This document shows, piece by piece, positions 11,935-35,917 of a DNA stretch of 64,000 bases. The position numbers and the translations under genes were made by a program. The notes beneath the pieces were generated by a model, which saw only the letters and a program-made list of their open reading frames with translations, did no database searches and was not told the origin of the DNA. Location of the stretch: IMG/VR virus record IMGVR_UViG_3300030419_001717, positions 6,373 to 70,372 of that record; one strand, given 5' to 3'. Numbering within the stretch: the first letter of the stretch is position 1; each line of letters starts with the position of its first letter. Origin of the DNA: a virus.

Positions 11935-11943
11935 CAATAAGCT

Positions 11944-14228: not shown

Positions 14229-14333
14229 ATGTCAAAATCAAAATTCAAAGGAACGCGTTTTACAATAGCAAGTCCTGAAGCAACCAAAATGTGGAAGGCT
14301 GTTAAAGAGTTAAAACGTTTATACGCAAAATAA
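14229..14333 (+). CDS. 34-aa basic microprotein
   Basis: MSKSKFKGTRFTIASPEATKMWKAVKELKRLYAK, directly after module 3. Confidence 0.6.
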   Translation: MSKSKFKGTRFTIASPEATKMWKAVKELKRLYAK

Positions 14334-14364
14334 ATTAGGTTTAAAGGGGTAGCTCCCCTTTATC

Positions 14365-14840
14365 GTGAGTGGCTGAATAATCCCTTCCCAAAGGGGATAA
14401 GGCACACAACACCCTTGACCAACGGACAAGTGTCTGAGGGATAGGTGAGTGGTAGGCGCGGACACAATACTTAGGTATTTGGGCCGGTGGTCCTTGTGGG
14501 TTAACCTTGAATCCCACCTCACACCCGCTTAGGGGAACCGTGGAAGCTATCGACTGCTTCCCGACCTAAAAAGATGAAAATAGCAAAATAGTATTGCAAC
14601 CCTAAGCACCTTATTGTTATTGCTGATTGCAACAGCTTTAATAGTCGGGTATAATCCGACTTAAAATAATGTCTGTCGCCGGACAACGAATGGCGAAGCG
14701 TAAAACAGCACACAGGTTAAGAGTGTTGCTTCCTAATCAGTTAGGGACACAAGAGCTTGTGTGACTGGAGTGACTATAGCACTCGCGGTTGGAAGCCCGT
14801 GGTTAGCGTGAGGGGTTCTGGAGCACCCCAACAGACAACC
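14365..14840 (+). ncRNA. Candidate large structured ncRNA 1 (about 475 nt)
   Basis: No plus-strand ORF; more than ten hairpins and long-range stems (GTGAG/CTCAC, GCTTAGGG/CCCTAAGC, TGTCTGT/ACAGACA); immediately upstream of the tRNA. Confidence 0.65.
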
Positions 14841-14853
14841 TTATTATTCTAGT

Positions 14854-14929
14854 GGAGTCGTAGTGTAGTGGCCCAGCATTTAAGGCTTTCGACCTTAAGA
14901 CCCGGGTTCGAATCCCGGCGACTCTGCCA
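14854..14929 (+). tRNA. tRNA-Glu (anticodon TTC)
   Basis: 76-nt cloverleaf: acceptor GGAGTCG/CGACTCT, anticodon arm TAAGG-CTTTCGA-CCTTA, T arm CCGGG-TTCGAAT-CCCGG, encoded CCA. Confidence 0.95.
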
Positions 14930-14969
14930 GCTAAAATTTGACCATGCGCCAATTTTTCAAAAACAGTGA

Positions 14970-15067
14970 CCGGAACCTATATCGCAGTATATAAACCCCC
15001 TCGATACTTATATACCTTTTTGAGAGAAACCTTTAAATACTCTCTCGCTACAAGTAAAATACGAGGT
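14970..15067 (+). promoter_or_regulatory. Multi-TATA early promoter module 4
   Basis: GTATATAA-N13-TTATATAC-N17-TTAAATAC-N6-GCTA-N12-GAGGT. Confidence 0.8.
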
Positions 15068-15074
15068 AATACAA

Positions 15075-15677
15075 ATGAGTTTCAAAGAAAATATAAAAAG
15101 AAATAAGTTTAGATTTAGGAAAGCTCCAATTAGGAGACAACCGGAAAATAAAATAGACAGTGGAGTCTTAGACCAGCTTAAAGCTAAAAGATTGGGGTTG
15201 ACCGAATGAGAGACGAGCTTTGGGAATTGGCTAATGATTTTCATTACGAAAACAGCGGAGCAACCGGAGAAGAAAACCTTCACCACGAAAAATGTGAATG
15301 GGTTTACGGTAATTGCACCTGCGGTAAAGCTGAAGAATTACAAATAAGATACGATTACGAGGACGACGGTGATTACTAATGAGTGAACACAACGTATATA
15401 ATTGGACCGACTTCTTATTGTGTATAGGAATGGAACTCGCCTACTATAAGAATGGCGAACGTCCTATCCAAGAACAAATGATAGCAGAAAAATTAATAGA
15501 AATAGGAGGTATAAAATAATGTTAGTAAGAAAGACAGACGCAGAGCTTATAAGAAAAGGTTTTGAAGAAGACGACCTAGTCTGCGATTCGTGTAAAGACG
15601 CTCACGCTACGTCAAGGGCAAGCCACGACGAAGTGTGCACAGATTGTTTTTACGAAATCTACGACGGGTGCCCTTAA
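15075..15677 (+). CDS. Four coupled micro-ORFs: 15075-15209, 15206-15379, 15379-15519, 15519-15677 (last is a CxxC-CxxC zinc finger)
   Basis: ATGA/TAATG overlaps at every junction; hand-translated at 44, 57, 46 and 52 aa. Confidence 0.7.
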
Positions 15678-15737
15678 ATTGGGCCATGTGCAAACCTTTA
15701 TTAAGGAGGTCGCTATAGGTATATCAGAGGTCAAACA

Positions 15738-16016
15738 ATGACAGATAATCAAAAGAAAACAACAACGATTGAGAAGCCCTATGAAATTTGGGTGGATAAG
15801 CACGGAGCCGGTTTTGAGTGGAGAGTATTAAAGAAATACCAAAAACCAGAACTGGAAGCAAAGAACCAATACGCCCGGTGGTTCTGTGGTGTTAAGTCAC
15901 CGTATACTTACGGAGAATTTGAATTAGGAGACGTTTACGTTTCAGAAATTAAATCAATGGCTACCAAGATAATAGAAGGCGCTGACGAATGCGCTGACTG
16001 GATAGCTAACCACTAA
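15738..16016 (+). CDS. Hypothetical early protein
   Basis: 92 aa; preceded by a single-TATA version of the module (CTTTATTAAG, GCTA, GAGGT). Confidence 0.8.
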   Translation: MTDNQKKTTTIEKPYEIWVDKHGAGFEWRVLKKYQKPELEAKNQYARWFCGVKSPYTYGEFELGDVYVSEIKSMATKIIEGADECADWIANH

Positions 16017-16034
16017 GAGTTAACAACCTCTAAC

Positions 16035-16068
16035 GGGGTGGTTTCAGGAGCCGAATTCCGACCACCCC
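16035..16068 (+). terminator. GC-rich hairpin after the ORF
   Basis: GGGGTGGT...ACCACCCC inverted repeat. Confidence 0.45.
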
Positions 16069-16097
16069 AAAAGTTAGACCATGTGCGAAAATTTTAT

Positions 16098-16476
16098 AGG
16101 TCACTTCGGAGGGAGCCCCTATATAAGGGGTTGGGCGTCCCACTTTAACTCCCTCCTGATAAGACCTTTTGTCATTGTAAGGGTGGGCCTGTGAGACTTC
16201 AAACGGTTTCCCGTCACGAGAGTTTCAATTTAATTAGTGAGAACCATTGACACAACGATTAGTTTAAGGTTTAAGTAATAGGGAAGGATTCAACGTTTCG
16301 TATTTCCTCGAGTAGTTTGAGAAAGGGCGTCCTACGGCACTTTAAATAATATACTCCTAACAAGTGACTAAACGACATTGATAGAGGGACGGCTACGCAT
16401 TTATATCTAAACTTTAATATCTAATTTGCGAGTGGTGACTAATTAACAGGCCCGTTTTATCGAGCTCTGATAAATA
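16098..16476 (+). ncRNA. Candidate large structured ncRNA 2 (about 380 nt)
   Basis: ORF-free; nested stems GGAGGGAG/CTCCCTCC, GGGCCTGT/ACAGGCCC, TAATTAGT/ACTAATTA, GTAGTT/GGCTAC; G-U pairs favour the plus strand. Confidence 0.55.
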
Positions 16477-16481
16477 TAATT

Positions 16482-16500
16482 GGGGAGGAATCGCCTCCCC
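16482..16500. terminator. Hairpin between convergent units
   Basis: GGGGAGG-AATCG-CCTCCCC. Confidence 0.5.
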
Positions 16501-16514
16501 TACGTTTTAGTTAT

Positions 16515-16868
16515 TTATTCCATTGCTTCAAGCTTAGCTTTAAGCTCAGTCAATGAAATTCTTCCAGACTTTACAGCAGAAATTATACTTTCCGGCGTTG
16601 CGGACACTTTACCAGCTCCGAGTCTACGGGAAGCCTGTAAATCTATAATTCGACTTGTAATAGCTGAAGTAGTTTTATTAAACTCTTCAACACTCAAGAC
16701 GTCATTTAGAGCTACGAGGGTATCGTATTTAACTCCGACGGGTAGACGGCCCCCCTCTGACGCAGTGAATCCAAGCAAAGACATTAAGTTCTTTACTATT
16801 CCACTGTTGCGAGGTGCGGACAAATAATCCATTGCTGTGCTTTTCTGGGTTTCAGTTGTTTTTGGCAT
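16515..16868 (-). CDS. Hypothetical protein, lone minus-strand gene in the early region
   Basis: 117 aa with AGGAG SD and its own TATA (CTTTATATAC near 16910-16920). Confidence 0.75.
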   Translation of the reverse strand: MPKTTETQKSTAMDYLSAPRNSGIVKNLMSLLGFTASEGGRLPVGVKYDTLVALNDVLSVEEFNKTTSAITSRIIDLQASRRLGAGKVSATPESIISAVKSGRISLTELKAKLEAME

Positions 16869-17039
16869 TTTTTACACTCCTTTTCTGGTAAATTACAGAA
16901 GGTTTGAAAGTATATAAAGCTTGTGGTAGAAATCATATATAAAGCCCCTCGACCCTTTTATACCCCTGTATAGCTTCCGCTCACTACTTTTCGTTTTATC
17001 CGCACATGTGTAGATTTTAATACATGCAGTGGTATAGAG

Positions 17040-17460
17040 TTTATATCTTTAGCTCAATTAGGCTCTATAAAAACCTATCGGTTATAACGTCGTAATCGGT
17101 CGGTGAGAAATTTATATTTTTTAGGTGCTTAATGGAGCTTATAAACTTTATATTACTTTTTGAAAGCTCTATATCGCTCGTTGACTGGCTCTACTACGCA
17201 CAGCCCCCGTGAGAAACTGTATAAGGCACTGAGTTTCTTTCGTAATAGAGCATTTTCTTTTATACGTTTGCGTTAAAAAAAATACTATAAACAATACGTT
17301 GCTCTAATATTATAATTAAGCTCTATTAAGATATTAATAGGCTCTATTAAGCAATATATCTTTTGCTCTATTAAGATATATAATTATAGACCTATATAAA
17401 GCTTGTTCTAATATAGCTCTTAATAGAGCCTTATCTTAATATAGTTTAATATAGTCTCCC
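17040..17460. repeat. AT-rich region with GCTCTATTAAG-type repeats, candidate replication origin
   Basis: Direct copies near 17320, 17341 and 17365, an inverted copy near 17418, and several degenerate GCTCTA copies. Confidence 0.5.
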
Positions 17461-17584
17461 GTTTTTTTATAAGTGTGAGCGGGATTTGCATACCTTTAGC
17501 GTTGAGCACAAGTCTATACGTTTAGACCCCAAAAACCGCCGAAAGACTTAAATACTTTGAAACCGTCTATTATTTAGGTTAAAA

Positions 17585-17833
17585 ATGAGACAATCCAACG
17601 CCGAAATTAGAAAAATGCTTAGTGATATAACTCCAGAACAACTGCTATCTTTAATGGCAGAGATAAAGGGTAATGGAGTTAGAAAGATTGACACTTCAGT
17701 AAGGGAACGTAGGAACCAAAAGACTGCACTATACTTTAGTGTAGCACCACTACCTTACAAGTCAACCTACGAAGAATATAAAATGCACTCCGATAGTATA
17801 AGAGAGCAGGTTATATCAGGAGTAGATTTATAA
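17585..17833 (+). CDS. Hypothetical protein
   Basis: 82 aa, with a TTAAATA TATA box upstream. Confidence 0.7.
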   Translation: MRQSNAEIRKMLSDITPEQLLSLMAEIKGNGVRKIDTSVRERRNQKTALYFSVAPLPYKSTYEEYKMHSDSIREQVISGVDL

Positions 17834-18007
17834 TGTTATACGATACACCTTACGGTAGCTATACGTATAAAGAATTAATGGAGATAGTAAACGAACAATG
17901 AAACAAAGATTAGAAATGAGATATCCCTCAGCCAAACTAAAACTACTACTAATGAGAAAGTATCAAGATAGAATGGGTGACGGTAAGAACTATCAAAAGG
18001 ATGAATA

Positions 18008-18355
18008 ATGAGTGAGATAACGTTAGAAGATATAAGGTCAATGATTAGAGGTAAGAATAGATTCTCTTTAATCAGTGTAGATAATGACAGTGATAAGCAT
18101 TACCAAACTTGGGCTACGCTTGTGCAAAAGGTGTATCCTAATACAGGTGATAACTTATACGAAACACAAAGAGGAATGTCACGTATAAGGGAAACCCTTA
18201 GCGTAATGGAGCCTAATGATTTTAATAAGATAGTTAATACTCTTAAGAAATACGAGGTTAGTGGTAGTGTAAGACCTATCAGTGGAGTAAAGACCTACGC
18301 TTACGATAAGAGTAGATTAGATAACAGAATGTATAAGAGAAAGAGGTCCAACTAA
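18008..18355 (+). CDS. Hypothetical protein
   Basis: 115-aa ORF in the operon. Confidence 0.7.
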   Translation: MSEITLEDIRSMIRGKNRFSLISVDNDSDKHYQTWATLVQKVYPNTGDNLYETQRGMSRIRETLSVMEPNDFNKIVNTLKKYEVSGSVRPISGVKTYAYDKSRLDNRMYKRKRSN

Positions 18356-18651
18356 TGGATATAATAGATAGTTATAGTGTGACGTGCAAGGTATACGTAG
18401 GTGATAAAGAAATAGACGTAGAGTTGCCAGAGTATATCTATAATAGGATAGATACGTATATAACTGAATACGAAGAGTGGTTAAGAAGCGGATAAAGATA
18501 GAATGAAATTTGATGACACTGAGTTTCTTATACTCTTAGCAACATTACTGAAAGATATAGAGGTAAGCGAAAGCTTTAAAAAGGATGAGACTATTGTTAA
18601 GGTTGACGACGCTGAGATTTTCAAAGCTGAGAAAATGTATGAGGATATAAG

Positions 18652-19959
18652 ATGAGTAGTAGAAGTGAGAAGTTTGCTAAGTTAGGTGACTTAACAACTA
18701 AGCACGTTAAGTTAGAAGATAAGAAGAGATATCTTTGTGAGAGTATGGACCGCTTAGCTGAGGATGATATACACGCTAAAGAAGAATATCTTAGACAGAT
18801 AAGCGTAATAAACGTTGAGATTTCTATATTAGAAAAAGAAATAAAAGAGGTAAAAAGTATGTATAAAGAACATAGAAGGGATGAAGAATTCCCTACCGAT
18901 AAGTATGACGAGGACATATCCCCCGATGAAGTGGATAGATATGAAGCAAGGCGTATGTTTAGAGAGTTATTCGAAGATGACTATCGAGATATAAGATACG
19001 AGCTTGACTCGGATGATTGGGAAACATTAGCTATATTTTTAAATAAAGAGATGTATACCGAAGAAGAACCAGAAGAGGAACCTGAAATAGTGATAGACGA
19101 TTCCGTATTGGGTAAGCTTAAGGCAAGTGTAGCAATACCTGAAGAATTTAAGTTTGCAGATAATATGACGTTTTACACTATGCTTAGGAATATCTTTAGG
19201 AACAAGTATATACTTGTGACAGGTCCATCCGGATGTGGTAAATCATCCTTAGGTAAGATTTTAGCAGAGATAAGTAATAAACCTTTCCATCAGTTCAACT
19301 TTGGAGACACTATGAATCCTGCGGCTAAGCTATTAGGAGACACTAAGTATAATCAAGAGGATGGAACTTGGTTTAAACCATCTCGTTTTGTTTCAGCCTT
19401 ACAAGATAACAGTGGTTCTTTCATTATGCTTGATGAAGTGACAAGAGATAGGACAGGTGACTTAGGTAATATCCTTATGCCTGTGTTAGATGGTCAAAGA
19501 TATTTAGCATTAGATGAAAGTGATGACGCAGACATAGTGAAATTGGATAGGAACGTATTCTTTTTTGCTACGGCAAACATAGGTAGAGAATATCTTGGTG
19601 CGGCCACCGACTTAGATAGAGCTTGGAAAGATAGATTCACGGGTGGTATATATGAATTAGATTATCTACCACAAAAGAAAGAACAGGAACTATTAATGGT
19701 GCGTGTTCCTTCTATTGATGAAAATGATGCACGACGTATAACTGAGTTTGCTAAGAAGATTAGAGATTTGTATAAAGCAGAAGAGTTAAACGTAGCAGTT
19801 TCTACTCGTATGTGTTTAGCAGTAGCTGAATTAGTGGTAGATGGAATGACATTGCTTGAAGCATTAAAGCACACTGTCCTACCATTTTATCCTATCACTG
19901 CTGGAGATGACACTGATAGAGTTAAAGTAATTCAAGCAATACAATCAATGGGTGATTAA
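18652..19959 (+). CDS. MoxR/CbbQ/CobS-like AAA+ ATPase
   Basis: GPSGCGKS, IMLDE, FFATAN, LDRAWKDRF and VSTR motifs; acidic coiled-coil N-terminus. Confidence 0.9.
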   Translation: MSSRSEKFAKLGDLTTKHVKLEDKKRYLCESMDRLAEDDIHAKEEYLRQISVINVEISILEKEIKEVKSMYKEHRRDEEFPTDKYDEDISPDEVDRYEARRMFRELFEDDYRDIRYELDSDDWETLAIFLNKEMYTEEEPEEEPEIVIDDSVLGKLKASVAIPEEFKFADNMTFYTMLRNIFRNKYILVTGPSGCGKSSLGKILAEISNKPFHQFNFGDTMNPAAKLLGDTKYNQEDGTWFKPSRFVSALQDNSGSFIMLDEVTRDRTGDLGNILMPVLDGQRYLALDESDDADIVKLDRNVFFFATANIGREYLGAATDLDRAWKDRFTGGIYELDYLPQKKEQELLMVRVPSIDENDARRITEFAKKIRDLYKAEELNVAVSTRMCLAVAELVVDGMTLLEALKHTVLPFYPITAGDDTDRVKVIQAIQSMGD

Positions 19960-20365
19960 TATGGCTAAAAGAGTCAGACCTAAGAAACATTTGTATTGGC
20001 ATAGTCAGGCGAAAGTCCTATTAGAACATGGAATGACTCCTACTAATGTAGCTAAAGCCTTAAAGGTAGTATACCCACAAGGGGAAATTACAGGTAGGCA
20101 CGTTGGAGGATATAAACGTAGACTAATTAACGATGATATGTTAACGAAAGGACTTCCACTTACTATTGATATGCAAGATGCAATAGGAATGGTAGAAGGA
20201 TTAGTTGGAGAAGATGATAGGTTTATCTATCATTGCACAATAGGTTCAGCTAAAAGAACACTAAAATGTTTTGAATATAAAATGTTAAAAGAATTAGTAG
20301 ATGAAAAAGCTGAAGAGGATATAGAAGAATGGTTATCAAACACGAACCACACTACACTGATATAG
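19952..20365 (+). CDS. Hypothetical protein, possible HTH
   Basis: GMTPTNVAKAL...ITGRHVGGYKRR resembles a helix-turn-helix. Confidence 0.55.
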   Translation: MINMAKRVRPKKHLYWHSQAKVLLEHGMTPTNVAKALKVVYPQGEITGRHVGGYKRRLINDDMLTKGLPLTIDMQDAIGMVEGLVGEDDRFIYHCTIGSAKRTLKCFEYKMLKELVDEKAEEDIEEWLSNTNHTTLI

Positions 20366-22482
20366 ATAGTTGGGCTGACGTAGCCGACGACGATTACTGC
20401 TACGAATGTAGTAAGTGGATTGAAGCAACATCAGAGGACTGTTGTCCTATATGTGAAACACCACTGAACTACGATGATGAGTATACGTCTGCGATGACAG
20501 CAAAGACATCATTATCTGATGCACCAAAGGTAAATACATACACCGGAGACATATGGAATCGGGGTAAGTCCTACGTTTGGGGCGGAGGTAATAGCTGGTG
20601 GAACAGTGGTAGTTCTGCATATACCGGTGGAGTATCGAGTATGTGGGGTAGTTGGAGTAGTAGTCATAATTCTGAAGATACTGCTTCTCGACTGCTTAAG
20701 CATAAGAGACATTTAGATTCTTTATGTAAAGTTGTAGACCCAACAGTAGCTCATAAGTTAGATTATAACTTTCATGGAAAAAATTATTCAGATTTGAATA
20801 GAGGAGTTATACGTATAGACGGCAGTCTACTGAAGGAAAGTGATGATAACTTAGACATATGTGCTGGTTTAGCCATACATGAAAAGTTGCATCTTATCCA
20901 TAGTAAACCATTATTGAAATGGGAAAGAGATTATAACTATTCTAATAATATGGACCACGCTGAAAAGAATTTATTACATACTATTGCTAATACAGTAGAA
21001 GATGAATATATAGAAAAGCAGTTAGCTAAAGATAATGCTGGTTTCGTGACATATATAGCTGAAGTAAAGAAACACTTCTTTGATACAGAGATGGAAGATA
21101 AGCTTCTAAAGGAAGGACAGAATGAGTTTATGGATATACTCAACACTCTGTTAGCTTTTGTTAGATGGCCTATCGAACTGAGTGCTGAACGTAAACGTAA
21201 ACATGCTAAACATATAAGATATTTCGCACGAGCATTAGCGACAGGATTAGATAGTAGAGACAATACTTTCAAATGTATAGAATCTTTGTATATGTATCTT
21301 AAAGAAATAGCTAAAAGAATGGCTAAAGAGAAAGGCGAAGAAGGTATAGATGATGAAGTTAAAGAAGAGTTAGAAAGGCTTACTGATAGTATGAGTGATT
21401 CTGATGAGATGTCTGAAGAAGAAACGGAAGCAATGAAAGATGCTATCCGTAAGAGTATAGAAAGAAAAAGAGAACGTATGTCTGATGTAGCCAAAGCGAT
21501 AGACTCTGATGAACTACGTGACTTAGCAAAGGTAGTAGACTATAACGAAAAAGCCATAGAAGATACGTTAGATGAAGAGTTAGCAGAAGCTATTAAAGAG
21601 CTTGAAGATGAAGATTTTCATGAAGAAGATATAAAGGATGTAGGTCTTATATATAAGAACCAAAGGAAAATCACTTGGCGTAAAGCACGTAGTGATGACC
21701 ATGCTAAAGATAGATATATCTTTGAATCTAAGAAGATGAAGAAACAATCTAATCAGTTAAAGCGTAAGATAGACTTATATGGTAATACTCAAAAACATAT
21801 CATACGTAATCAAAAGCGTGGTAAGATAGATAAAAGAATGCTTCATAGGATACCTGCTGGTCGTATGGATTTATTTAAGAATGATATAATTCAAGATGAT
21901 AAACCATTAGACATATGTATATTGGTAGATGAATCAGGTAGTATGGGTTCATGGAAAATGGAGATGGCCAGACAATCAGCCATAGCAACCAAAGAAGCTT
22001 TAGAAGATAACCCTAAGTTAAACTTATGGGTGTTTGGACATACAGCTGATGGTGAAAAAGGATGGCATACTGACACAGGGTCAACTAATATGACTGAATA
22101 TTATTCACCACGTATGAAAGATAGACCCTTTGCAATAGGTAATATGAGGGCCAGATATGAAAACCGTGATGGTAATGCAATATATGCGGCCGCTGAAAAG
22201 GTTAGTAAGGAATCCGAACAACCTATGTCTAACAAGCTTATGATTATATACTCCGACGGACAACCAGCCGCTGATAGATATGGTGGTATGGATAGTAGGA
22301 GACACGTAAGAAAAGTAGTAAGCTACTTAGAGGCTAAAGGATGGGCCATTATACAAGTAGGTATAAGTGGTGCAAACGAATGGTGTCAGAAAGAAATGTT
22401 TACTAATCATATAATGGTTAATGATATAGAGAATCTTGCTCCAGAAGTAAGTAAAGTAATAAGGAGGGTGATAAAAGTATGA
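20329..22482 (+). CDS. VWA-domain protein (CobT-like MoxR partner) with HExxH motif
   Basis: MIDAS DESGSM, SDGQP, HEKLH...EDEYIE, and an N-terminal CxxC..CPxC. Confidence 0.88.
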   Translation: MVIKHEPHYTDIDSWADVADDDYCYECSKWIEATSEDCCPICETPLNYDDEYTSAMTAKTSLSDAPKVNTYTGDIWNRGKSYVWGGGNSWWNSGSSAYTGGVSSMWGSWSSSHNSEDTASRLLKHKRHLDSLCKVVDPTVAHKLDYNFHGKNYSDLNRGVIRIDGSLLKESDDNLDICAGLAIHEKLHLIHSKPLLKWERDYNYSNNMDHAEKNLLHTIANTVEDEYIEKQLAKDNAGFVTYIAEVKKHFFDTEMEDKLLKEGQNEFMDILNTLLAFVRWPIELSAERKRKHAKHIRYFARALATGLDSRDNTFKCIESLYMYLKEIAKRMAKEKGEEGIDDEVKEELERLTDSMSDSDEMSEEETEAMKDAIRKSIERKRERMSDVAKAIDSDELRDLAKVVDYNEKAIEDTLDEELAEAIKELEDEDFHEEDIKDVGLIYKNQRKITWRKARSDDHAKDRYIFESKKMKKQSNQLKRKIDLYGNTQKHIIRNQKRGKIDKRMLHRIPAGRMDLFKNDIIQDDKPLDICILVDESGSMGSWKMEMARQSAIATKEALEDNPKLNLWVFGHTADGEKGWHTDTGSTNMTEYYSPRMKDRPFAIGNMRARYENRDGNAIYAAAEKVSKESEQPMSNKLMIIYSDGQPAADRYGGMDSRRHVRKVVSYLEAKGWAIIQVGISGANEWCQKEMFTNHIMVNDIENLAPEVSKVIRRVIKV

Positions 22483-22595
22483 ACACAGTATTATGTAATA
22501 CGTGCCGATGTAAGTTAGCACTAAACTATGTAAGATATAGAGATACTGCGGGTAATCCATATTGCCACGTATGCTATCAGAGGTTATTGATATAA
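22479..22595 (+). CDS. 38-aa zinc-finger microprotein
   Basis: CNTC...CHVC; ATGA and TAATG overlaps with both neighbours. Confidence 0.65.
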   Translation: MNTVLCNTCRCKLALNYVRYRDTAGNPYCHVCYQRLLI

Positions 22596-23303: not shown

Positions 23304-23314
23304 ACAAGGTGATA

Positions 23315-23382
23315 GGATAGAAGTGACAACCTTATTTCTTAAACAGTTGTTTGGCTCATTTTACCTCTCGTTGCTTCTATCC
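23315..23382 (+). ncRNA. Hairpin with an anti-SD/anti-AUG loop
   Basis: 13-bp stem GGATAGAAGTGAC/GTTGCTTCTATCC; the loop contains CATTTTACCTC. Confidence 0.5.
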
Positions 23383-23388
23383 CACTAA

Positions 23389-23953
23389 ATGTGGTAGAGA
23401 CCTGAATCATACGCCCCAAAGTCGCTGAGAAAGATATAATGACTGAGCCACATGATATGGCCCAAACAGGTGAGATATACATCTGATGCTATAAGCAGAC
23501 GATACACATCTCTGGAAAACTGTCGTTATATCTGTGTCGCTGGTGAGGAATATAACTATTGAAACACCTGAAGCAGTTATGCAGATGGACTGAATCCCGT
23601 AGAGATTCTATACAGTAGAAACTATTGGACCTTTAGTTATATATGTATACCGTCGTTGGACAAGAATGGATACGCAGAACGCTACGTTGGATAGCGTCAA
23701 TACGCAAGTTATACTTAGACCGGACACTTAGTAGGTGAGTAGCGGTATGGATGCTACTCATAAAGAGAACCAAACGTAGGAGGTATAACCTGACTACCCT
23801 GTCTTATGGTTATACAGCTAATCATTATGCACTACCTATGTGTCAAGCGAACCTACTAAACATATAGCATGGACCCGTTGTCAAGGAGTAAGCTGTAAGG
23901 CCCGCATAGGGCGAGTGATAAACAAGGACATATTCGTCGGTGAGAAGCACATC
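23389..23953 (+). ncRNA. Candidate large structured ncRNA 3 (about 565 nt)
   Basis: ORF-free gap in a dense operon; stems GATATAATGAC/GTCGTTATATC, TGAGTAGCG/TGCTACTCA, TTAGTAGGT/ACCTACTAA, ACGCTA/TAGCGT, GAATAT/ATATTC. Confidence 0.65.
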
Positions 23954-24151
23954 TATATATGCTTAGTTTTGTTTGGGGTTATATCTCTCTCTACCACAAA
24001 CTTTAAATAGATATTTGATATATATTGAAATAACAAATGGAGGTTTTGAAAAAATGGTAAGAGAATTTATAGTATGGTTAGATAAAAAATTCGGTTTTAG
24101 TAGTAAGAAACTAATGATAAGACCCAGAAAATATAACAAAGGTAAATAAAC

Positions 24152-27431: not shown

Positions 27432-27657
27432 TTATGACAGAATGCAACAGATGTTTAAAAAACGCTTTCGTATGGACATACGATGGCAGAAAACGGTGTG
27501 TTAACTGTAACCCCTATAAGGAAGAATGATGGATATAATCCCATTAGAAATTTCACGTATAGACCAGATTAAAGTCTATACTTTACAAGTTATATGCTAC
27601 ACTACAGCGAAAGCTTTATATATTGTGTAGTTATGTTAGGTTCACAGGAGTGATTAA

Positions 27658-27963
27658 ATGTCAGAAAGAACAGAAATATTCGACAGAGTTTACAGAGCCG
27701 CTGAGCATTATCAGAGGACAGGTAAACATAAGCAAGTAAGCTTTAGGTATAATCCTGAAGCAAGAACAGAGTTTGACTTCTCTCAATGGAAACATTCAAG
27801 AGACCACGACTCAGTTAGAAAAATCTTAGTAGAAGATGTAAAAGTATCAAGCGATGGTATGGTATATGCTATTGGAGTAGATAACAGATATAACCTTAAA
27901 CAGTTTACTGCACAATACCCTCAGCATGTCAGAGCTTATCGTATTGATAGGATGGTAGTATGA
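27658..27963 (+). CDS. Stand-alone WYL-like domain protein
   Basis: V.FRY...R.I......G.VYAIGVD...RAYRIDRM matches the WYL R.FR.DRI signature; own TATA near 27612. Confidence 0.6.
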   Translation: MSERTEIFDRVYRAAEHYQRTGKHKQVSFRYNPEARTEFDFSQWKHSRDHDSVRKILVEDVKVSSDGMVYAIGVDNRYNLKQFTAQYPQHVRAYRIDRMVV

Positions 27964-28127
27964 AACAAGTAAGTAGTATAAAACGTATAAGTGAATACAA
28001 GTCAGTCTATATCCCTGATGTTATCTTAGAAGATATGAAATTAGATTCTGGAGATAATGTTGTGTGGTTTCAGAATGATGACGGACACTATCTCATAAAG
28101 AAAGTTCAAGTAGATATACTCGATTAG
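27960..28127 (+). CDS. AbrB/SpoVT-like DNA-binding protein
   Basis: 55 aa; SVYIPDVILEDMKLDSGDNVVW...LIKKV; ATGA overlap. Confidence 0.7.
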   Translation: MKQVSSIKRISEYKSVYIPDVILEDMKLDSGDNVVWFQNDDGHYLIKKVQVDILD

Positions 28128-28136
28128 AGGTTAACT

Positions 28137-29622: not shown

Positions 29623-29636
29623 AAGGAGAAGAAACT

Positions 29637-29846
29637 ATGACAGAACAAAAGAAAACTGGATTAGAACTTGTAGTCGGATTGTTCCGAAACACAGATAAGA
29701 ACGGCAACGTATACTACACTGGCAAGAACGAAGCTGGTGATGAATTCGTTATGTTCAGAAACTCTTATTGGAAGGAAGGGGCATCTAAGCCATACTTCCG
29801 TTTAATGAAGAGAACTGAAGCAAGTGCAACAAAGATAGAGGATTAG
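29637..29846 (+). CDS. Small beta-rich protein (DUF736-like)
   Basis: VGLFRNTDKNGNVYYTG...MFRN...KPYFRL; strong SD. Confidence 0.55.
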   Translation: MTEQKKTGLELVVGLFRNTDKNGNVYYTGKNEAGDEFVMFRNSYWKEGASKPYFRLMKRTEASATKIED

Positions 29847-29850
29847 AGAT

Positions 29851-30222
29851 ATGGCACACCCATTAGACGACCTTATGGACGCTTGGATGGATATGATAAC
29901 TGCTAGACCACCTCGTTTCAGAGCTACACAGTTTCCAACATGGAACAATAAAGATGACATAGGAGACTGGGAAGATAAGAACGGTGAGATAACTATCACT
30001 GTCGATATGCCCGGAGTAGCGAAGAAAGATATAGAAATGCATGTTGATAAGCATTTAGTAAAGGTAGAAGCTTCTACTGAGGATAGGGATTATTCCTTCT
30101 CAAAGAAGTTTACACCTGAACTCAACCCTGATAAGGTAGAAGCTAAATTCAACAATGGTGTTCTAGATATCAAAATCCAAAAGGCTGAAGAAAGTAAAGG
30201 TAAGAAGATAAGTATTAAATGA
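29851..30222 (+). CDS. hsp20: Small heat-shock protein (Hsp20)
   Basis: VDMPGVAKKDI...AKFNNGVLDIKI.K and a C-terminal IxI. Confidence 0.92.
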   Translation: MAHPLDDLMDAWMDMITARPPRFRATQFPTWNNKDDIGDWEDKNGEITITVDMPGVAKKDIEMHVDKHLVKVEASTEDRDYSFSKKFTPELNPDKVEAKFNNGVLDIKIQKAEESKGKKISIK

Positions 30223-30911
30223 GTGTTTACTCAGATTGGATACAGTCGCCCAAAAGTCAAAGAGTATGGTTAGAAGACTCAATGAGTGCGTTGGGACAAT
30301 TCGCATTTATAGCACCAATTCATAGAGTGAAACATTGGAATCAATCCACGAGACGTAGAGTTAAATGTTGGGCTGAAGAAGGTGAATGTGTATTCTGTAA
30401 ACAAGATATACCACGTATAAATGAATTTACATATGGTATATATCATAATGATACAGAGTATATAGGTGGTGGTAAGCATAATATATCTTACTTATCTGCT
30501 ACCTTAGCAACACATACACACTTTCAAAAGACATTCTCAAAGTTGATAGATGAAAACATTAATCCTACTGATGTAGTGTTCGAATTAAAGAGAACTAAAA
30601 TAACTACGTCACAAGGTAGAACAGTTAATGGTTACGCCTTAGACCAAACAGATATGGAATCTTTTGTAAAGGAGAAATTCAGACCCTCCCTATTTAACTC
30701 AGAAGAACAAGAGTATACTTGGATAGTTCCAGAAGAGATAGTGAAGTTTTTGGAAGAGAAAGATGGAGAGCCTATGTCTCTAATTGATTTGTTCCTATCC
30801 TTAAAGGATAACTTTACAGGTATGAGTGAAAAGGAATTAAAAACCTATGCTATTCGATTATGTGAGAACAATGTTCTCAACCTGAGAAGAGCGAGGAAGA
30901 AATGGATATGA
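30219..30911 (+). CDS. Putative Zn-binding ssDNA-binding protein (gp32-like)
   Basis: HW...C......CxxC metal site and OB-like strands; located in the replication block. Confidence 0.45.
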   Translation: MSVYSDWIQSPKSQRVWLEDSMSALGQFAFIAPIHRVKHWNQSTRRRVKCWAEEGECVFCKQDIPRINEFTYGIYHNDTEYIGGGKHNISYLSATLATHTHFQKTFSKLIDENINPTDVVFELKRTKITTSQGRTVNGYALDQTDMESFVKEKFRPSLFNSEEQEYTWIVPEEIVKFLEEKDGEPMSLIDLFLSLKDNFTGMSEKELKTYAIRLCENNVLNLRRARKKWI

Positions 30912-31014
30912 ACTGGTTCAGTGACTATGATAGCCCCAACCACTTAGATATTATATTCTTTGGTATAGTGTGGTCTTTCTTAATGATAGAGTATTATTTA
31001 TGGAGAGTAAATAA

Positions 31015-32487
31015 ATGAAAAAATATGAAGTTCACGACTTAACAAGATATTTTCATAATGTTAAGAATAAAAAAGGAGAGCTGAATCCTATCTTAGGAGA
31101 AGATGCCACCGCTTTAACAGCATGTTTATCTTATCTTTTAGAAGACACAAACTTTGTTATTAAGGCTTATTCAGGGACAGGTAAGACAGTCATCATGGAT
31201 GCTATCTTTGGCCTGTTACCTGATGAGTTTTATCATACTATGGAGCATCTTTCTGAGACTGCTGTATGGTATGATGCTGATAAGATAAATCGTTCAAGGT
31301 TTGTAGCCATACCAGAAGCGCAAAAGTTACCCGAAGGAGTAATGGAAGTCATTAAGACTTGGGGTGACAGCAGGGCAGCCTTTAGAAAAAAGACTGATAT
31401 TACGGTAGGAGAGACTGTTAGACAGACTCTTAATCCAAAATATGTCTTCATGTGTGTAGCAGTAGAAAACACAAAAGGTTCATCCTATTTCGACGCAGAG
31501 TTAGAACGTAGATGTATGATTATGCATACTAACCCTACAGTTGTTCAAACTGAAAGAGTTATAAAGCATAAGCTGTTAGAGGCTGCATCTCCACTAACTG
31601 ATTTAACTACTATGTCTGATGAAGAGATAGAAGGATTGCGTAGACATATACTAGATGTTATAGTAAATAGAGATGATGAAGAAGCTATAAAATTGAAGAA
31701 CCCCTGTGCGCCATTTTTATTTGAGGCTATACCAAGTGCCTTCCCTGTCTCAAGGTCTAAAGTCCAGTATCTATTAAAACTGATTAATGCAGTTGCTAGA
31801 TTTTATCCTGATGAGATTCTAAGGGTAGAGAAAGATGGAGTTAAATATGGACTCGTGACCCCTAAACATAACTGGTTAGGATTACGTATATATTTAAATT
31901 CATTTGTTGAAGAATGTTTACATATGCCAAGTCATGGAACAGATATACTTAAATTATTCCCTGATACAAGACTAGATAAATTTGGTTTTGCAGATGGGGA
32001 AACTATAAGAATGTCCACTAATGAAATAAAGAAAGCTGCTAAGGCAGTTGGTCTACCTTTCACTAAACTAGACCCTATACTAATGGGTTTAGTTATGACA
32101 GGTTTCTTAGAAATGGATGATGATAAAGGTAAGCGTATGTATTACAAAAGTCCACTGATAGACGAACCAGTGGCAAAAATAAACTGGAGTGAGTTAATTG
32201 AAGAAACGAAAGAGTTTATGGGAAAGAACTGGTCTACCGTGGCTGGGGAATACAATGGTCGCTTTTGTAGCGATATTAAAATTGTTGACCCGTTTACTGG
32301 CGACAACGTTAGGTTGGGTTCGAGAGCAAAGACAGCAACGGAAGTAGAGAAAATGGATTACCCAAAGGTTTTTAAAACCAAACGTGATTCAGAGATTAAG
32401 GACTATGAGTCCTTTCTATTAAATGCAGAAGGAGATTATAATGAAAAAGAACTCAAAGATATCAAACATACCTTTCAGAAAGGTTAA
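31015..32487 (+). CDS. AAA+ ATPase, candidate MCM-related replicative helicase
   Basis: Walker A YSGTGKT, Walker B-like VAIPE, ELERR arginine finger, possible C-terminal winged helix. Confidence 0.6.
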   Translation: MKKYEVHDLTRYFHNVKNKKGELNPILGEDATALTACLSYLLEDTNFVIKAYSGTGKTVIMDAIFGLLPDEFYHTMEHLSETAVWYDADKINRSRFVAIPEAQKLPEGVMEVIKTWGDSRAAFRKKTDITVGETVRQTLNPKYVFMCVAVENTKGSSYFDAELERRCMIMHTNPTVVQTERVIKHKLLEAASPLTDLTTMSDEEIEGLRRHILDVIVNRDDEEAIKLKNPCAPFLFEAIPSAFPVSRSKVQYLLKLINAVARFYPDEILRVEKDGVKYGLVTPKHNWLGLRIYLNSFVEECLHMPSHGTDILKLFPDTRLDKFGFADGETIRMSTNEIKKAAKAVGLPFTKLDPILMGLVMTGFLEMDDDKGKRMYYKSPLIDEPVAKINWSELIEETKEFMGKNWSTVAGEYNGRFCSDIKIVDPFTGDNVRLGSRAKTATEVEKMDYPKVFKTKRDSEIKDYESFLLNAEGDYNEKELKDIKHTFQKG

Positions 32488-32761
32488 ACTTCCTGTTAAG
32501 GATGAACAGTTCGCTGTAGTAAGTGAGATGTCTGGGGGTTCACGATTGAAAGCTATGTGTGAGGATGGTCAAACACGCATGGTAAGAATAGGTGGTAAAT
32601 TTAAAAGAAGAATGTGGGTCAGAGAAAATGACCTTATTCTTATTAAGCCGTGGACTGTGCAAACAGAAAGTAAAGCTGATTTAGTTCATAGGTATTTACC
32701 AACAGAAAGGAAATGGATAATTAACAGAGATATAATACCAGAGGAGTTAAACATATGGTAG
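32441..32761 (+). CDS. eif1a: Translation initiation factor aIF-1A
   Basis: AVV.EM.GG.RL.A.CEDG.TR..RI.GK.KRRMWVRE.D.I...PW......KAD.V.RY. Confidence 0.93.
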   Translation: MKKNSKISNIPFRKVKLPVKDEQFAVVSEMSGGSRLKAMCEDGQTRMVRIGGKFKRRMWVRENDLILIKPWTVQTESKADLVHRYLPTERKWIINRDIIPEELNIW

Positions 32762-33120
32762 AAGAAGTAATAAACATATTAGAACCGGAATGGATGAAGT
32801 TGGGTATTGAAGCAAGTTATATGGATTTTACACGTAGAACTGCGAAATACCCTAAAGAAAAAGAAGTAGAATACCTAATGATAGGGTTAATGAATGAGGC
32901 AGGGGAAGTAGGCGGAGCCTTCAAGAAAGAGATAAGAGATAACGTAGACAATAAAGAACTCATCATAGATGAAATGGGTGATGTCTTATGGTATCTTACA
33001 CGACTTTGTGATGTGTATGATATAAGAGTATCAGACCTAATGAGAACAAACATGATTAAGTTATTTCAAAGAATGTCCCCTGAACAAGCTGAAGAGTATA
33101 GGGGAATTTCTACAGAATGA
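32755..33120 (+). CDS. MazG-like NTP pyrophosphohydrolase
   Basis: GLMNEAGEV...KK and DEMGDVLWY motifs. Confidence 0.9.
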   Translation: MVEEVINILEPEWMKLGIEASYMDFTRRTAKYPKEKEVEYLMIGLMNEAGEVGGAFKKEIRDNVDNKELIIDEMGDVLWYLTRLCDVYDIRVSDLMRTNMIKLFQRMSPEQAEEYRGISTE

Positions 33121-33407
33121 GCGTTGACATTAAAGAGTTAAAAGTTAACACAGAAGATGAACGCAAAGATTGGATAGACCTTTTATATCATTGTGTGAAT
33201 TTTCATGAACAGATAGCACAAGAAGTTAAGTCAGAGATACTGGGTGATGAAGAATCGAAAGCGATGTATATGTATCACTCTTCTATGGCTAACGCTGTAA
33301 GAGACGCTATAGGTTTAATTCAAATGTGGGAGATAAAAGAAGAGAATGAAATTAAAACTGCTAAAGAAATCATGGATGAACAAAGACAGATAGGTAGACC
33401 AGAATGA
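33117..33407 (+). CDS. Hypothetical protein
   Basis: 96 aa, coupled on both sides. Confidence 0.7.
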   Translation: MSVDIKELKVNTEDERKDWIDLLYHCVNFHEQIAQEVKSEILGDEESKAMYMYHSSMANAVRDAIGLIQMWEIKEENEIKTAKEIMDEQRQIGRPE

Positions 33408-35623
33408 AAGTACCACTAATAGCAACCGTAAGTCATAGGACTATAGACTTAAGAGATGGTTCACAGAAAATTAAGATATATAGAAATGGAAATGTAGAAG
33501 CTGTTAAGAGTCCTCTTATACCTTACTACTATACTGTAGATGAGAATGGTAAAGAGTATAAAACTATTGCCAGTGATAAGAAGATAAAACTTAAAAGAAA
33601 TAACTACGTTCCAAACAAAGATGCCGTTCCACCAAATGCGTTCTATGATGGTGGACGTGAAGCCCTTCTGGAGCGACTCGTAATCGAGAACCCTGACTTC
33701 TTTAGTCAGTACCCTAACACGGATGACTTAAAGTGTCTCGTGTTCGATATCGAAACGCACTCACCTGATGGGGGATTTCCTTTTGGTGAGAAATACCCTG
33801 TTGTAGCGATTGGCATAGTAACGTCCACTGGAGAACGTGAAGTTCTTTTGTGGGATGGTAAAGATGACAGAGATGTTATACTTAAGTTCGCTGAATATGT
33901 GCATGATTATGACCCAGACATTATATGTGGGTATAACCTCGTAGGGTATGATATCCCTCAAATATTACATAGAGCTAATTTCCATGGCCTTAAAGGCTAT
34001 AAAAAGATACTTAACAGAGATAACAGTGAATGGGGATGGGAGTCCCCTAAAGACCAAAAAGAATTGAAGATGAACGCCGGAGGACGCATAGTTCTCGATT
34101 TACTGAGATGGACACGACTTGATTACTCCCTATCAGGTATTCCAAGAGGTCTAAAAAGTGTAGCAAAGAATTTTGGATTAGAGCCATTAGAGCTTGACTT
34201 TGCTAACAAAGACTTGTTGGATTATTCCATAGAAGAGATAAACGATTACGTCTTAAGTGACGTAGACGCCACCATGTATCTCTATAACCACTATTTTCCC
34301 CAGATTCAGTATATCGCAGAAACATTATGCGTTCCACTGGCAACATATGTCAATGCTCCATCTAGTTATATAACTAAAATATTACAAGGGAGGAGCTTGT
34401 TTGAGCAAGGCATAGTAACGCTTGATAGAAATAAAGAACGACACCCTACTATCTTTAAAGCTGACAGAGGGAACTATCAAGCTGCACATATAGAGCTTTA
34501 CAGTCCCGGATTTCATCAGAAGAATGTAAAGATAGACTTTAGTGCATTCTATCCCTCAATCGCAATGGCGCTGAATTTAGGCCCAGATACTACACAAATT
34601 GTAGGATATGACGACTATAGTGAGAAGCTAGAATTCAAAGATGGGATACTTTACGTGCCTGATAACAAGGTGGGTAAAAGACTAATGGTTAAAATAGACC
34701 AGTCTAGGAAGAGCTGTCTATATAAAATGTGCACAGAATTCACAGAAATGCGAAAGCCTTATAAGCTTGGGTCCACGAAAGAAGATAAGAGCAAATCAAA
34801 TGCTCTGAAAATAATGGTGAATACATTCTATGGTGCAAACGCTAATCCTTATATTACTTATGGTGACATGGGTGTTGGTATTACTATCACAGCAGTTGCG
34901 CGCTGGCTCCTTCTTTCAGCTGTCGATATTATCCGTGCGAGATATGGAGAGGATGCTGTGGTATATGTTCATACTGATGGGATTAATACTAATGTGGATG
35001 TTGATGAGTCATGGGTAGTAAAAAGATTGAGGGCTTTGCTTAAGCATGTTGTTACTGATGCTGAGCCGCAGCATATATCTATGGATAAAGACTACTTTAA
35101 AGAAGGTGTATGGCTTCAAGTAGGAAACTATGTCTTAAGAAATGAAGATGGTAGTCTAACCAAACATGGAAGTACATTCAAAGCAACGAGTCGTTCTAAG
35201 TTTTATCTTAAAGTGTTAGATAAAATTATAGAGAATCGTATAAACAATACTATTAATAATACATTTATTGATAAGCTATATGATTTGAATGAGTATGAAT
35301 TAGAAGATTTTGTTATGCGTAAAAGTCAAGGACGTAAAAAGGAAGACTATAAATCTGAGACTGATTTAATTCTTAAATTAATTGCTATGGGAGAAGCTAT
35401 AGGTATGGAGTCTACTGAAGGAACTACATATTATTATGTTAAAACAAAGGAAGGTTATAAGTTAGAATCTACCGTTAAAGATATAGACGAGATAGATATG
35501 AGATACTATTGGGATACTATCAGTACATTGTTGCAGAAGTTTCAATTACAGAGTTGGATAAAGAAAAGACCACCACTAACAGTATTAGATAGTAAACAAC
35601 AGAGTTTAATGGAGTGGATATAA
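33404..35623 (+). CDS. polB: Family B DNA polymerase
   Basis: Exonuclease FDIET and GYN..GYD; polymerase DFSAFYPS, KIMVNTFYG and HTDG. Confidence 0.96.
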   Translation: MKVPLIATVSHRTIDLRDGSQKIKIYRNGNVEAVKSPLIPYYYTVDENGKEYKTIASDKKIKLKRNNYVPNKDAVPPNAFYDGGREALLERLVIENPDFFSQYPNTDDLKCLVFDIETHSPDGGFPFGEKYPVVAIGIVTSTGEREVLLWDGKDDRDVILKFAEYVHDYDPDIICGYNLVGYDIPQILHRANFHGLKGYKKILNRDNSEWGWESPKDQKELKMNAGGRIVLDLLRWTRLDYSLSGIPRGLKSVAKNFGLEPLELDFANKDLLDYSIEEINDYVLSDVDATMYLYNHYFPQIQYIAETLCVPLATYVNAPSSYITKILQGRSLFEQGIVTLDRNKERHPTIFKADRGNYQAAHIELYSPGFHQKNVKIDFSAFYPSIAMALNLGPDTTQIVGYDDYSEKLEFKDGILYVPDNKVGKRLMVKIDQSRKSCLYKMCTEFTEMRKPYKLGSTKEDKSKSNALKIMVNTFYGANANPYITYGDMGVGITITAVARWLLLSAVDIIRARYGEDAVVYVHTDGINTNVDVDESWVVKRLRALLKHVVTDAEPQHISMDKDYFKEGVWLQVGNYVLRNEDGSLTKHGSTFKATSRSKFYLKVLDKIIENRINNTINNTFIDKLYDLNEYELEDFVMRKSQGRKKEDYKSETDLILKLIAMGEAIGMESTEGTTYYYVKTKEGYKLESTVKDIDEIDMRYYWDTISTLLQKFQLQSWIKKRPPLTVLDSKQQSLMEWI

Positions 35624-35716
35624 TGCCGCAATCTTTATATACTATATCGTCATATAACTATCTAGTTGCGGAGTCTGTTTCGAAAACACGACCCTGCCAA
35701 CCTAATAAAGGAGATA

Positions 35717-35917
35717 ATGAATATGGATGAAAATGACGGTAAAGGACTTGCTTCGTTCTTGAAGGAAAAAGAAGTTAAAGTAGTATGGCGAGAAGAGGAA
35801 AAGACGAAAGTCGGTAGAGGAATGATAGTAAACGATGATGATAATTTTGTATACCTTACAGGTGAGAAAGGAACTGTCGTAGTTAATAAAAGAGATATCA
35901 TTGCTATAAAACAGTGA
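35717..35917 (+). CDS. Sm/LSm-like small beta-barrel protein
   Basis: 66 aa: helix, V.V.W, RG.I...DDNFVYL, VVVNKRDIIAI; GGAGA SD; own TATA near 35634. Confidence 0.6.
   Translation: MNMDENDGKGLASFLKEKEVKVVWREEEKTKVGRGMIVNDDDNFVYLTGEKGTVVVNKRDIIAIKQ

Follow-up and report, generated by a model that had tools for sequence, protein, structure and literature searches.

The RNA family manA is described, in the parts of two reports that deal with it, as a riboswitch candidate in the 5' untranslated regions (UTRs) of marine, cyanophage and gamma-proteobacterial sequences (PMC2864571; PMC9964418); by the same account, its name comes from an association with mannose-metabolism genes (PMC2864571). According to the available part of a preprint, manA RNAs of less than 200 nt, studied by cryo-electron microscopy, self-assemble into decamers and a 60-mer cage (10.64898/2026.07.01.735769). 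Here we describe a viral locus in which manA appears in a different setting. The window, by which we mean the whole stretch of DNA that was analysed, comprises 64,000 nucleotides (bases 6373-70372 of the 70,372-bp record IMGVR_UViG_3300030419_001717). It carries manA, the unfamiliar RNA modules X, Y, Z, W and H and a tRNA-Glu gene, together with genes for an Sm/Hfq-fold protein (the Sm-like protein), the translation initiation factor aIF-1A and a conserved 101-aa protein. A sequence-only reading of the window had joined such elements into one possible RNA-centred host-takeover system. We consider it somewhat more probable than the opposite that independent noncoding RNA (ncRNA) modules ride on early transcripts, and that the RNA-binding and translation genes are separate from them.

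The locus shares several traits with cyanophage systems. As in the T4-like cyanophages with manA in the excerpt of PMC2864571, the carrier is a marine virus and a tRNA gene region adjoins the RNA. As in the T4-like cyanophage S-CREM1, for which the excerpt of PMC9964418 lists wcaG, manA, abiF and glnA, structured RNAs and tRNAs lie within a few hundred bases, and cobS, hsp20, mazG and pyrimidine-dimer glycosylase genes occur alongside, as they do in the T4-like cyanophage clusters of that excerpt (PMC9964418). There are also differences. Whereas the carriers described in the relevant part of PMC2864571 are cyanophages and gamma-proteobacteria, the present one has an archaeal-type aIF-1A and TATA-box promoters; and whereas manA is placed there in 5' UTRs, here it follows stop codons and stands ahead of other ncRNAs (PMC2864571). 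Unlike the T4-like cyanophage clusters, the locus contains RNAs (X, Y, Z, W and H) that match no Rfam family. The gene set also differs from that of T4-like cyanophages in including aIF-1A and a family B DNA polymerase (PolB), and the virus has no close relative among GenBank phages.

Results

manA and the plus-strand chain of RNAs

We searched 22 virus records, namely the window's own and 21 relatives, most of which are fragments (15-83% complete); all 22 belong to one syntenic virus lineage. The manA RNA (Rfam RF01745) lies at 14342..14527 on the plus strand. Its score of 55.5 bits (E 1.9e-11) just exceeds the gathering score of 55.2, and the match spans positions 1-192 of the covariance model, with the pseudoknotted core included. 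Across the lineage, manA was detected in 12 of the 22 records at E <= 4e-13 with scores of 47.4-72.6 bits, and 5 of the 22 exceed the gathering score; an extra copy in L004 was seen by blastn only. The same model gave no match in 14 control genomes. Judged by these scores, the manA call is borderline in this genome and holds up across the lineage. Separately, 2.4 kb from manA and on the opposite strand, a NAD-dependent epimerase/dehydratase of the GDP-mannose-dehydratase family is encoded at 10924-11937 (minus strand, Pfam E 9.6e-44).

In all layouts examined, manA starts 24-110 nt past a stop codon. Seven types of open reading frame (ORF) stand upstream of it: the 34-aa, a 27-aa, a pair of 29 and 22 aa, a 56-aa, a homologue of the 57-aa gene, a 92-aa and the 117-aa. 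Downstream on the same strand come W and X, Y, a convergent RNA or promoters, and a coding gene was never directly next in the layouts seen. The 5'-UTR placement on which the riboswitch-candidate label is based was not found here. Because manA follows stop codons, has varied upstream ORFs and has no coding gene next to it, a free-standing RNA fits better than a leader.

Between manA and X lies the hairpin module W (14527..14607, plus strand). Its 9 distinct copies have different complementary outer stems, which therefore covary, around an invariant loop of about 30 nt. X itself is a multi-helix RNA of about 190 nt (14645..14837, plus strand), directly upstream of the tRNA gene. An alignment of 8 distinct X sequences supports 52 pairs, and compensatory changes are seen in 23 of these; of the cells, 96.1% are paired, against 35.6-42.2% when the partners are slid by 1-3 columns, and none of 500 shuffles reaches the observed covariation. 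Several conserved G-U pairs place X on the plus strand. A covariance model (R1) built from six of the eight copies, with two short-form copies excluded owing to misalignment by MAFFT, finds X in 13 of the 22 records. A permissive Rfam search of X returned no match at E <= 5.

The tRNA of the sequence-only reading was recognised: both ARAGORN and Rfam (RF00005, 62.9 bits against 29) identify the cloverleaf at 14854..14929 on the plus strand as tRNA-Glu (anticodon UUC), with CCA encoded and a T-run after it. It is present in 3 of the 22 records, and in all three X lies 13-16 nt upstream.

RNA Y and its neighbours on the minus strand

Y consists of a three-way junction and a 5' hairpin (16085..16249, minus strand). 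Its conserved core was first detected as an 81-nt blastn match with 97% identity; the 117-aa gene lies upstream of it, and an oligo-T run marks its end. Folded as minus-strand RNA, 8 copies give -31.8 kcal/mol with 36 pairs, of which 17 have compensatory changes and one is an invariant G-U pair; the oligo-T run comes after the last helix in most of them. A plus-strand Y was rejected, as the same copies there give only -21.4 kcal/mol and 31 pairs. We therefore place Y on the minus strand, on account of the better fold, the invariant G-U pair and the oligo-T end. The corresponding model (R2) finds Y in 12 of the 22 records, and Rfam at permissive thresholds returned nothing but chance-level matches for the Y block, with no family.

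Two small hairpins lie close by. The mini-hairpin H (16035..16068, plus strand) has a covarying stem and an invariant 20-nt loop, UUUCAGGGGCCGAAUCCCGA; its 6 distinct copies have differing stems and occupy various slots, one of them inside Y in L004. The second, GGGGAGG-aatcg-CCTCCCC (16483..16501), is paired in the minimum-energy fold and comes just past the end of the 117-aa reading frame; the anti-Shine-Dalgarno (anti-SD) hairpin of the sequence-only reading has a candidate here.

The 117-aa gene (16515..16868, minus strand) is conserved and uses the inverted cassette at 16906-16983 as its promoter. By tblastn, the protein is 57-83% identical in six of seven loci; it has no match in Pfam, PHROG or NCBIfam. 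In relatives, the gene is always followed by manA, by Y or by both (manA then Y in G021, manA alone in G003), and its product could be a protein partner of these RNAs. In one marine metatranscriptome, a contig of 393 nt with 3 differences covers the 3' end of the 117-aa gene, the spacer and the start of Y (16187-16579 only, out of the 5 kb compared), which is a weak hint of an abundant RNA. The other three of the four RNA-seq runs compared gave no match to the 5 kb, which is no sign of silence either.

RNA Z and its loop

Z, an RNA with a long bulged stem, lies at about 23310..23440 on the plus strand. It follows a 51-aa ORF and has a conserved single-stranded 3' tail. Within the gap that contains it (23304-24151), the first 140 nt or so after the 51-aa ORF are nearly invariant in two relatives, and the gap closes with the promoter of the following gene. 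Scanning metagenomes with a 19-base pattern yielded 29 stretches; without 2 chance hits and 4 truncated ones, these reduced, together with the window and two loci, to a set of 21 distinct sequences. Aligned, they share 17 pairs, of which 4 covary, as well as U-G pairs that are invariant on the plus strand and a conserved unpaired tail. The covariance model of Z (R3) finds it in 10 of the 22 records, including all four that are nearly complete, which makes Z the most constant of the RNAs.

The loop of Z ends in UUUACCUCUCG, a motif that resembles the anti-SD end of 16S rRNA. Of 7 copies that came from the covariance model without the pattern, 5 retain UUUACCUC, 1 has UUUUCCUCU instead, and the weakest has lost the motif. 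The loop is complementary to the AGAGGUAAA leaders of the promoter cassettes described below, at 9 of 9 positions for P1 and P2 and at 8 of 9 for P3. AGAGGTAAA occurs with at most one mismatch at 45 sites against 26.4 expected, and these include the ribosome-binding sites of P1, P2 and P3. We regard this loop as the best lead to a mechanism.

Bacterial small RNAs (sRNAs) with C-rich anti-SD loops exist, among them those with the UCCC loops of the RsaE/RNAIII type in S. aureus. Z is like them in its conserved pyrimidine-rich loop, UUUACCUC(U/C), complementary to ribosome-binding sites; it differs from them in architecture, in being carried by a virus of a probable archaeon, and in that its targets are predicted by sequence. 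A C/D-box sRNA (GUGAUAG ... CUGAG) was considered and rejected. Such RNAs have their C, D', C' and D boxes within 50-70 nt, whereas here some 130 nt separate the boxes, with a 13-bp stem between them. A permissive Rfam search of the Z block gave chance-level matches only (sR46 at E 4.1, Afu_335 at E 4.3).

Past Z, a segment of roughly 500 nt (23450-23960) in the window is unrelated to its counterpart in L002 and is reduced to about 120 nt in L003. It appears to be hypervariable or replaceable, with a conserved anchor on either side. As an ncRNA candidate it was discarded: it shows no conservation and no notable ORF, and the block as a whole has a fold z-score of -1.48.

Organisation of the early region

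The region from 12.6 to 17.6 kb contains a cassette of about 109 nt in four plus-strand copies (12617, 13210, 14106 and 14953), the direct repeat family D1, and one inverted copy, the inverted repeat I1 (16906-16983). Every copy has a palindrome, a TATA-like box and an SD leader, AGAGGTAA, and a conserved T-run, the probable stop of the preceding unit, comes before each. In P3 (14106..14214, plus strand), for example, the palindrome GTATATAAG..TTATATAC is followed by the BRE/TATA-like element CTTTAAATAC and the SD AGAGGTAAG. The promoter motif, a purine-rich stretch and then (C/A)(T/C)TTA(A/T)ATA, has 30 sites against 12.3 in shuffles, and it lies 44-45 nt upstream of start codons, the spacing expected of BRE/TATA promoters.

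The early region can therefore be read as an array of short units, each with a cassette promoter, an SD leader, a small ORF and an oligo-T stop, and we give this reading as a whole slightly better than even chances. In several units, noncoding sequence follows the small ORF on its 3' side, and several have stable structured RNAs at their ends or as the greater part of their length. One plus-strand unit comprises the 34-aa ORF, manA, W, X and tRNA-Glu, and a minus-strand unit comprises the 117-aa gene, its spacer and Y. Between divergent early promoters, the AT-rich, noncoding stretch 16990-17560 holds at least 6 direct and inverted GCTCTATTAAGATA-like repeats and is a candidate for a replication origin or a regulator-binding array.

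None of the three gaps at 14334-14853, 16017-16514 and 23304-24151 has a conserved ORF. The fold z-score is -3.79 for 14334-14853, where none of 100 shuffles folds as well, and -2.86 for 16020-16514 on the minus strand, where 2 of 100 are as good; for 23304-23990 it is only -1.48, with 2 of 20 shuffles as good. The sequence-only reading had seen about 1.4 kb of structured noncoding sequence in this genome and had named three large ncRNAs. The first two blocks do fold beyond chance and all three contain conserved RNAs, but Y is on the minus strand, and in the third block, which is mostly variable, only about 130 nt are conserved. The RNA content is nevertheless richer than first stated, with one known and at least five unfamiliar conserved RNA modules. 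Judged by covariation, by the G-U pairs that fix the strand and by the Rfam scores of manA, we take X, Y, Z and manA to be genuine RNAs.

The Sm-like protein and aIF-1A

The Sm/Hfq-fold protein has 64 aa and is encoded at 35723..35917 on the plus strand, within an ORF of 35666-35917, with a TATA-like box at 35633 and an SD (AAGGAG) at 35710. The conserved part starts at 35723, with 70-92% identity in 7 relatives. From this 8-sequence alignment, AF2 predicts a helix (H9-13) and five strands, at a pLDDT of 77.9. Foldseek ranks Hfq chains first for the model (E ~1e-2, TM 0.63-0.73), and the ten top-scoring chains of the VIA wide search (Z 8.1-9.1) include 8 of Hfq and 1 of an archaeal SmAP, with S. 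aureus Hfq 1kq1_A in first place (Z 9.1; 58 of 60 residues superposed at an rmsd of 1.8 A). The model also superposes on the M. jannaschii Hfq-like protein and on Halobacterium SmAP, and 64 aa is the size of a minimal Hfq. On the strength of the predicted model and these structural matches we accept the Sm/Hfq fold, which bears out the first description of this protein. It differs from Hfq and SmAP in being encoded by a virus and in having no LSM/Hfq sequence signature, and its ring formation and RNA binding are putative. The protein has no match in Pfam, PHROG or NCBIfam. A complex prediction with 4 copies (score 0.10, mark 0.42) counts neither way.

The gene for aIF-1A, an archaeal-type translation initiation factor, lies at 32423..32761 on the plus strand; a start at 32441 is probable, going by homologues of 106 aa. 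Here the first assignment is confirmed. Pfam PF01176 matches at E 2.1e-17 (62.9 bits against a cut-off of 30.2) and NCBIfam NF003084 at 104 bits against 91, while TIGR00523 stays below its cut-off (91 against 102.9). All 19 Protein Data Bank (PDB) matches are aIF1A or eIF1A, the best four being archaeal, with 4mno, 5jb3 and 1jt8 at E ~1e-21. No aIF-1A was found in 50,697 GenBank phage records, and the main texts searched on magroviruses and other marine archaeal viruses make no mention of one. In metagenomes, aIF-1A occurs in at least 254 clusters, on contigs of up to about 73 kb.

The 101-aa protein and the small basic ORFs

The 101-aa protein (27658..27963, plus strand), earlier called WYL-like, is conserved, with 62-82% identity in an alignment of five, and its gene has its own TATA-like box at 27610-27624. 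We found nothing to support the WYL label. There was no WYL match in Pfam at E <= 0.01; when the search was extended to E <= 10, one of the five members matched WYL (PF13280) at E 0.027, far below the cut-off. The profile had no match among PDB sequences. Not one of 291 homologues carries a precomputed Pfam domain, and a search of 1.84 billion proteins gave only 15 representatives, the sole long one being an FG-GAP/Kelch propeller that we judged spurious. The best score in a language-model atlas (0.80) counts as no evidence. The predicted model (pLDDT 56.1) is too poor to weigh either way on the fold; its best VIA match is a BAH domain (Z 4.8), and no WYL chain is among the 50 matches listed. 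The statement that this gene and the Sm-like gene have promoters of their own holds, in that TATA-like boxes of the early-cassette type lie upstream of both.

Several small ORFs encode very basic peptides (pI 10.5-12), as had been noticed, and those at 15075, 26306 and 28572 are conserved. The 34-aa ORF (14229..14333, plus strand; pI 10.5), which is the first reading frame of the P3 unit, is not: it has no Pfam or PHROG match, its best tblastn hit in all fetched loci is at E 2.4, and its slot in relatives holds unrelated ORFs.

Distribution across the lineage

Among the 22 records, manA matches in 12, X in 13, Y in 12, Z in 10 and the tRNA in 3, and the Sm-like protein in 11, the 101-aa protein in 12 and aIF-1A in 10. 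Four records have a completeness of 90% or more. All of them contain manA, Y, Z and the genes for the Sm-like protein, the 101-aa protein and aIF-1A; X occurs in three, G007 being the exception, and the tRNA in two. For Y and Z, the matches in G007 are weak. Contig ends account for most absences, and G010 and G012, for instance, stop short of the early region. The genes for the Sm-like protein, the 101-aa protein and aIF-1A are present wherever their region is covered.

Some absences are of another kind. In G005, whose sequence spans the early region, the 101-aa gene and Z are present, but manA, X and Y were not found. G020 has Y and Z, but manA and X were not found. In G013, which encodes all three proteins, none of manA, X, Y and Z was matched at E <= 0.001. 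If synteny holds, the length of this record would take in both RNA regions; it is also the most divergent member, so that the sensitivity of the models may be at fault. Moreover, manA, X and Y switch slot and strand between relatives. Because of the absences in G005, G020 and G013 and of this shuffling, manA, X and Y look like accessory, exchangeable modules, and the proteins and Z look like core genes. Co-occurrence of RNAs and proteins across relatives had been proposed as a check of the host-takeover idea, and its outcome says little, as all the records are kin: the nearly complete records carry both, but G005, G007, G013 and the shuffling lean towards independent distribution.

The virus and its likely host

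CheckV estimates the 70,372-bp record as 100% complete. The genes are on the minus strand up to 12.35 kb and beyond 42.3 kb and on the plus strand in between. Pfam matches in the window include a T4-type large terminase, a tape-measure protein, a class II ribonucleotide reductase, a CobS-like AAA ATPase, a CobT-like VWA protein, PolB, an ATP-dependent ligase, a RecU-like resolvase, Hsp20, MazG, a pyrimidine-dimer glycosylase and a squalene/phytoene-synthase-like protein, a gene set that, going by these families, is of the tailed-virus type. A collagen-triple-helix-repeat protein (62338-63219, minus strand; Pfam E 1.1e-15), probably a tail fibre, belongs to the structural module. In a tblastn comparison with the GenBank phages (50,697 records), no close relative was found, with identities of at most 24% for PolB and at most 37% for the CobS-like protein. 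The window is nearly all of the complete genome of a marine tailed virus whose host is most likely an archaeon; the host assignment is based on the archaeal/eukaryotic type of aIF-1A and the enrichment of the BRE/TATA-like promoter motif.

Discussion

Taken together, we lean, with little more than even confidence, towards independent ncRNA modules that ride on early transcripts and towards RNA-binding and translation genes that stand apart from them. The RNAs would be self-contained, movable, gene-like modules and not the 5' leaders of particular genes. They may be released from the 3' parts of early transcripts, X perhaps being freed by RNase P cleavage at the adjoining tRNA, and once free they may work in trans or serve as stable particles. 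The Sm/Hfq-fold protein, aIF-1A and the 101-aa protein would be separate core genes with their own promoters, in a replication block 12-20 kb away. As the most likely functional contact, we speculate that a ring of the Sm/Hfq-like protein could bind the U-rich 3' ends of RNAs such as Y. The ring might also assist Z, whose loop, UUUACCUC(U/C), could mask AGAGGUAAA ribosome-binding sites and so turn early translation off.

A number of observations weigh against parts of this picture. For the RNAs, manA in this genome is only just over the Rfam cut-off, the RNA-seq support is one contig without strand or ends for which DNA carry-over is possible, and no transcript ends were seen for the RNA modules. 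For the loop of Z, the pattern by which the 21-sequence set was gathered included part of the loop, the weakest copy (G007) is without the motif, the pairing with SD leaders is a generic purine/pyrimidine match, and no co-variation between Z loops and cassette leaders was seen across genomes. For the Sm-like protein, neither the 8 members against LSM/Hfq models nor the profile against PDB sequences gave a match at E <= 10. For the archaeal host, neither the phage tblastn nor the genome-contig scan identified a host. The aIF-1A alignment had a single match among genome contigs, 72% identical, on contig L043 (10.9 kb) of a metagenome-assembled genome (MAG) labelled as bacterial (Maricaulis); this is probably a mis-binned viral contig of the same lineage. 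In addition, cyanophages, which are known carriers of manA, also have RecU, Hsp20, MazG, CobS and pyrimidine-dimer glycosylase.

The structured stretches might have no role in trans at all and act in cis as 3'-end elements of early mRNAs, namely as stabilisers against 3' exonucleases, processing sites or termination aids. The layout speaks for this to some extent: manA always lies 24-110 nt past a stop codon, Y and X close their units just ahead of T-runs or the tRNA, and H and the hairpin at 16483-16501 look like terminal stem-loops. However, the long invariant single-stranded stretches and the multi-helix junctions of manA, X, Y and Z far exceed what a protective hairpin needs, the same RNA occurs downstream of unrelated genes, and manA, W, X and the tRNA are chained in one unit. 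By analogy, the manA cages reported in the available part of the preprint (10.64898/2026.07.01.735769) would also point to a particle role. We consider purely cis-acting elements rather unlikely.

The integrated system of the sequence-only reading goes further than independent modules. In it, the RNAs would be joined by the Sm-like, 101-aa and small basic proteins in dedicated viral ribonucleoproteins, which together with aIF-1A would redirect host translation or block defence. The genome does combine an Sm/Hfq fold and aIF-1A with at least five structured RNAs, and the U-rich 3' end of Y is of the type bound by Hfq/Sm rings. aIF-1A would be a deliberate speciality of this lineage, because it is absent from the GenBank phage records, and manA, Y, Z and the three proteins each occur in all four nearly complete records. 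Yet that co-occurrence lies within one syntenic lineage and for this reason carries no independent weight. X is not in G007, G005 keeps the 101-aa gene without manA, X and Y, and G013 has the three proteins with none of the four RNAs at E <= 0.001. Furthermore, the RNAs change position whereas the proteins stay put, the individually promoted protein genes are 12-20 kb from the RNAs, the WYL identity is unsupported and the 34-aa ORF is not conserved. Working ribonucleoproteins of the RNAs with the Sm-like protein, the 101-aa protein and aIF-1A are a reasonable hypothesis that rests on co-occurrence; the integrated system as proposed we hold to be decidedly unlikely.

That the conserved stretches act as DNA (a replication origin, packaging signal or regulator sites) is very improbable, for although the adjacent AT-rich 16.99-17.56 kb is dense in direct and inverted GCTCTATTAAGATA repeats and palindromes occur in the promoter cassettes, manA and the tRNA belong to established RNA families, and the G-U pairs confined to one strand (invariant in Y, invariant as U-G in Z, several in X) would be A-C mismatches on the opposite one.

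Beyond the independent modules, a broader picture can be drawn, in which a widespread lineage of marine archaeal tailed viruses practises virus-encoded riboregulation with three arms. The Hfq-like ring would load Z, and perhaps Y and X, onto SD leaders, timing or re-targeting translation; the viral aIF-1A would adjust how the host ribosome initiates; and manA would be a free particle and not a riboswitch. We regard this as a long shot. If it were true, it would be the first Hfq-sRNA-type system from an archaeal virus and the first context of manA outside bacteria.

To our knowledge, the regulatory RNAs of archaeal viruses are almost undescribed. In marine metagenomes the lineage is common (the 101-aa protein forms 291 clusters and aIF-1A at least 254), and it offers at least five RNA modules supported by covariation, a small Hfq/Sm-fold protein and a viral aIF-1A for study. 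The occurrence of manA in what appears to be a non-5'-UTR, non-bacterial setting bears on the 16-year-old question of its function and on the report of RNA cages. The loop of Z, finally, provides a concrete and falsifiable hypothesis for how translation may be controlled in time in an archaeal virus.

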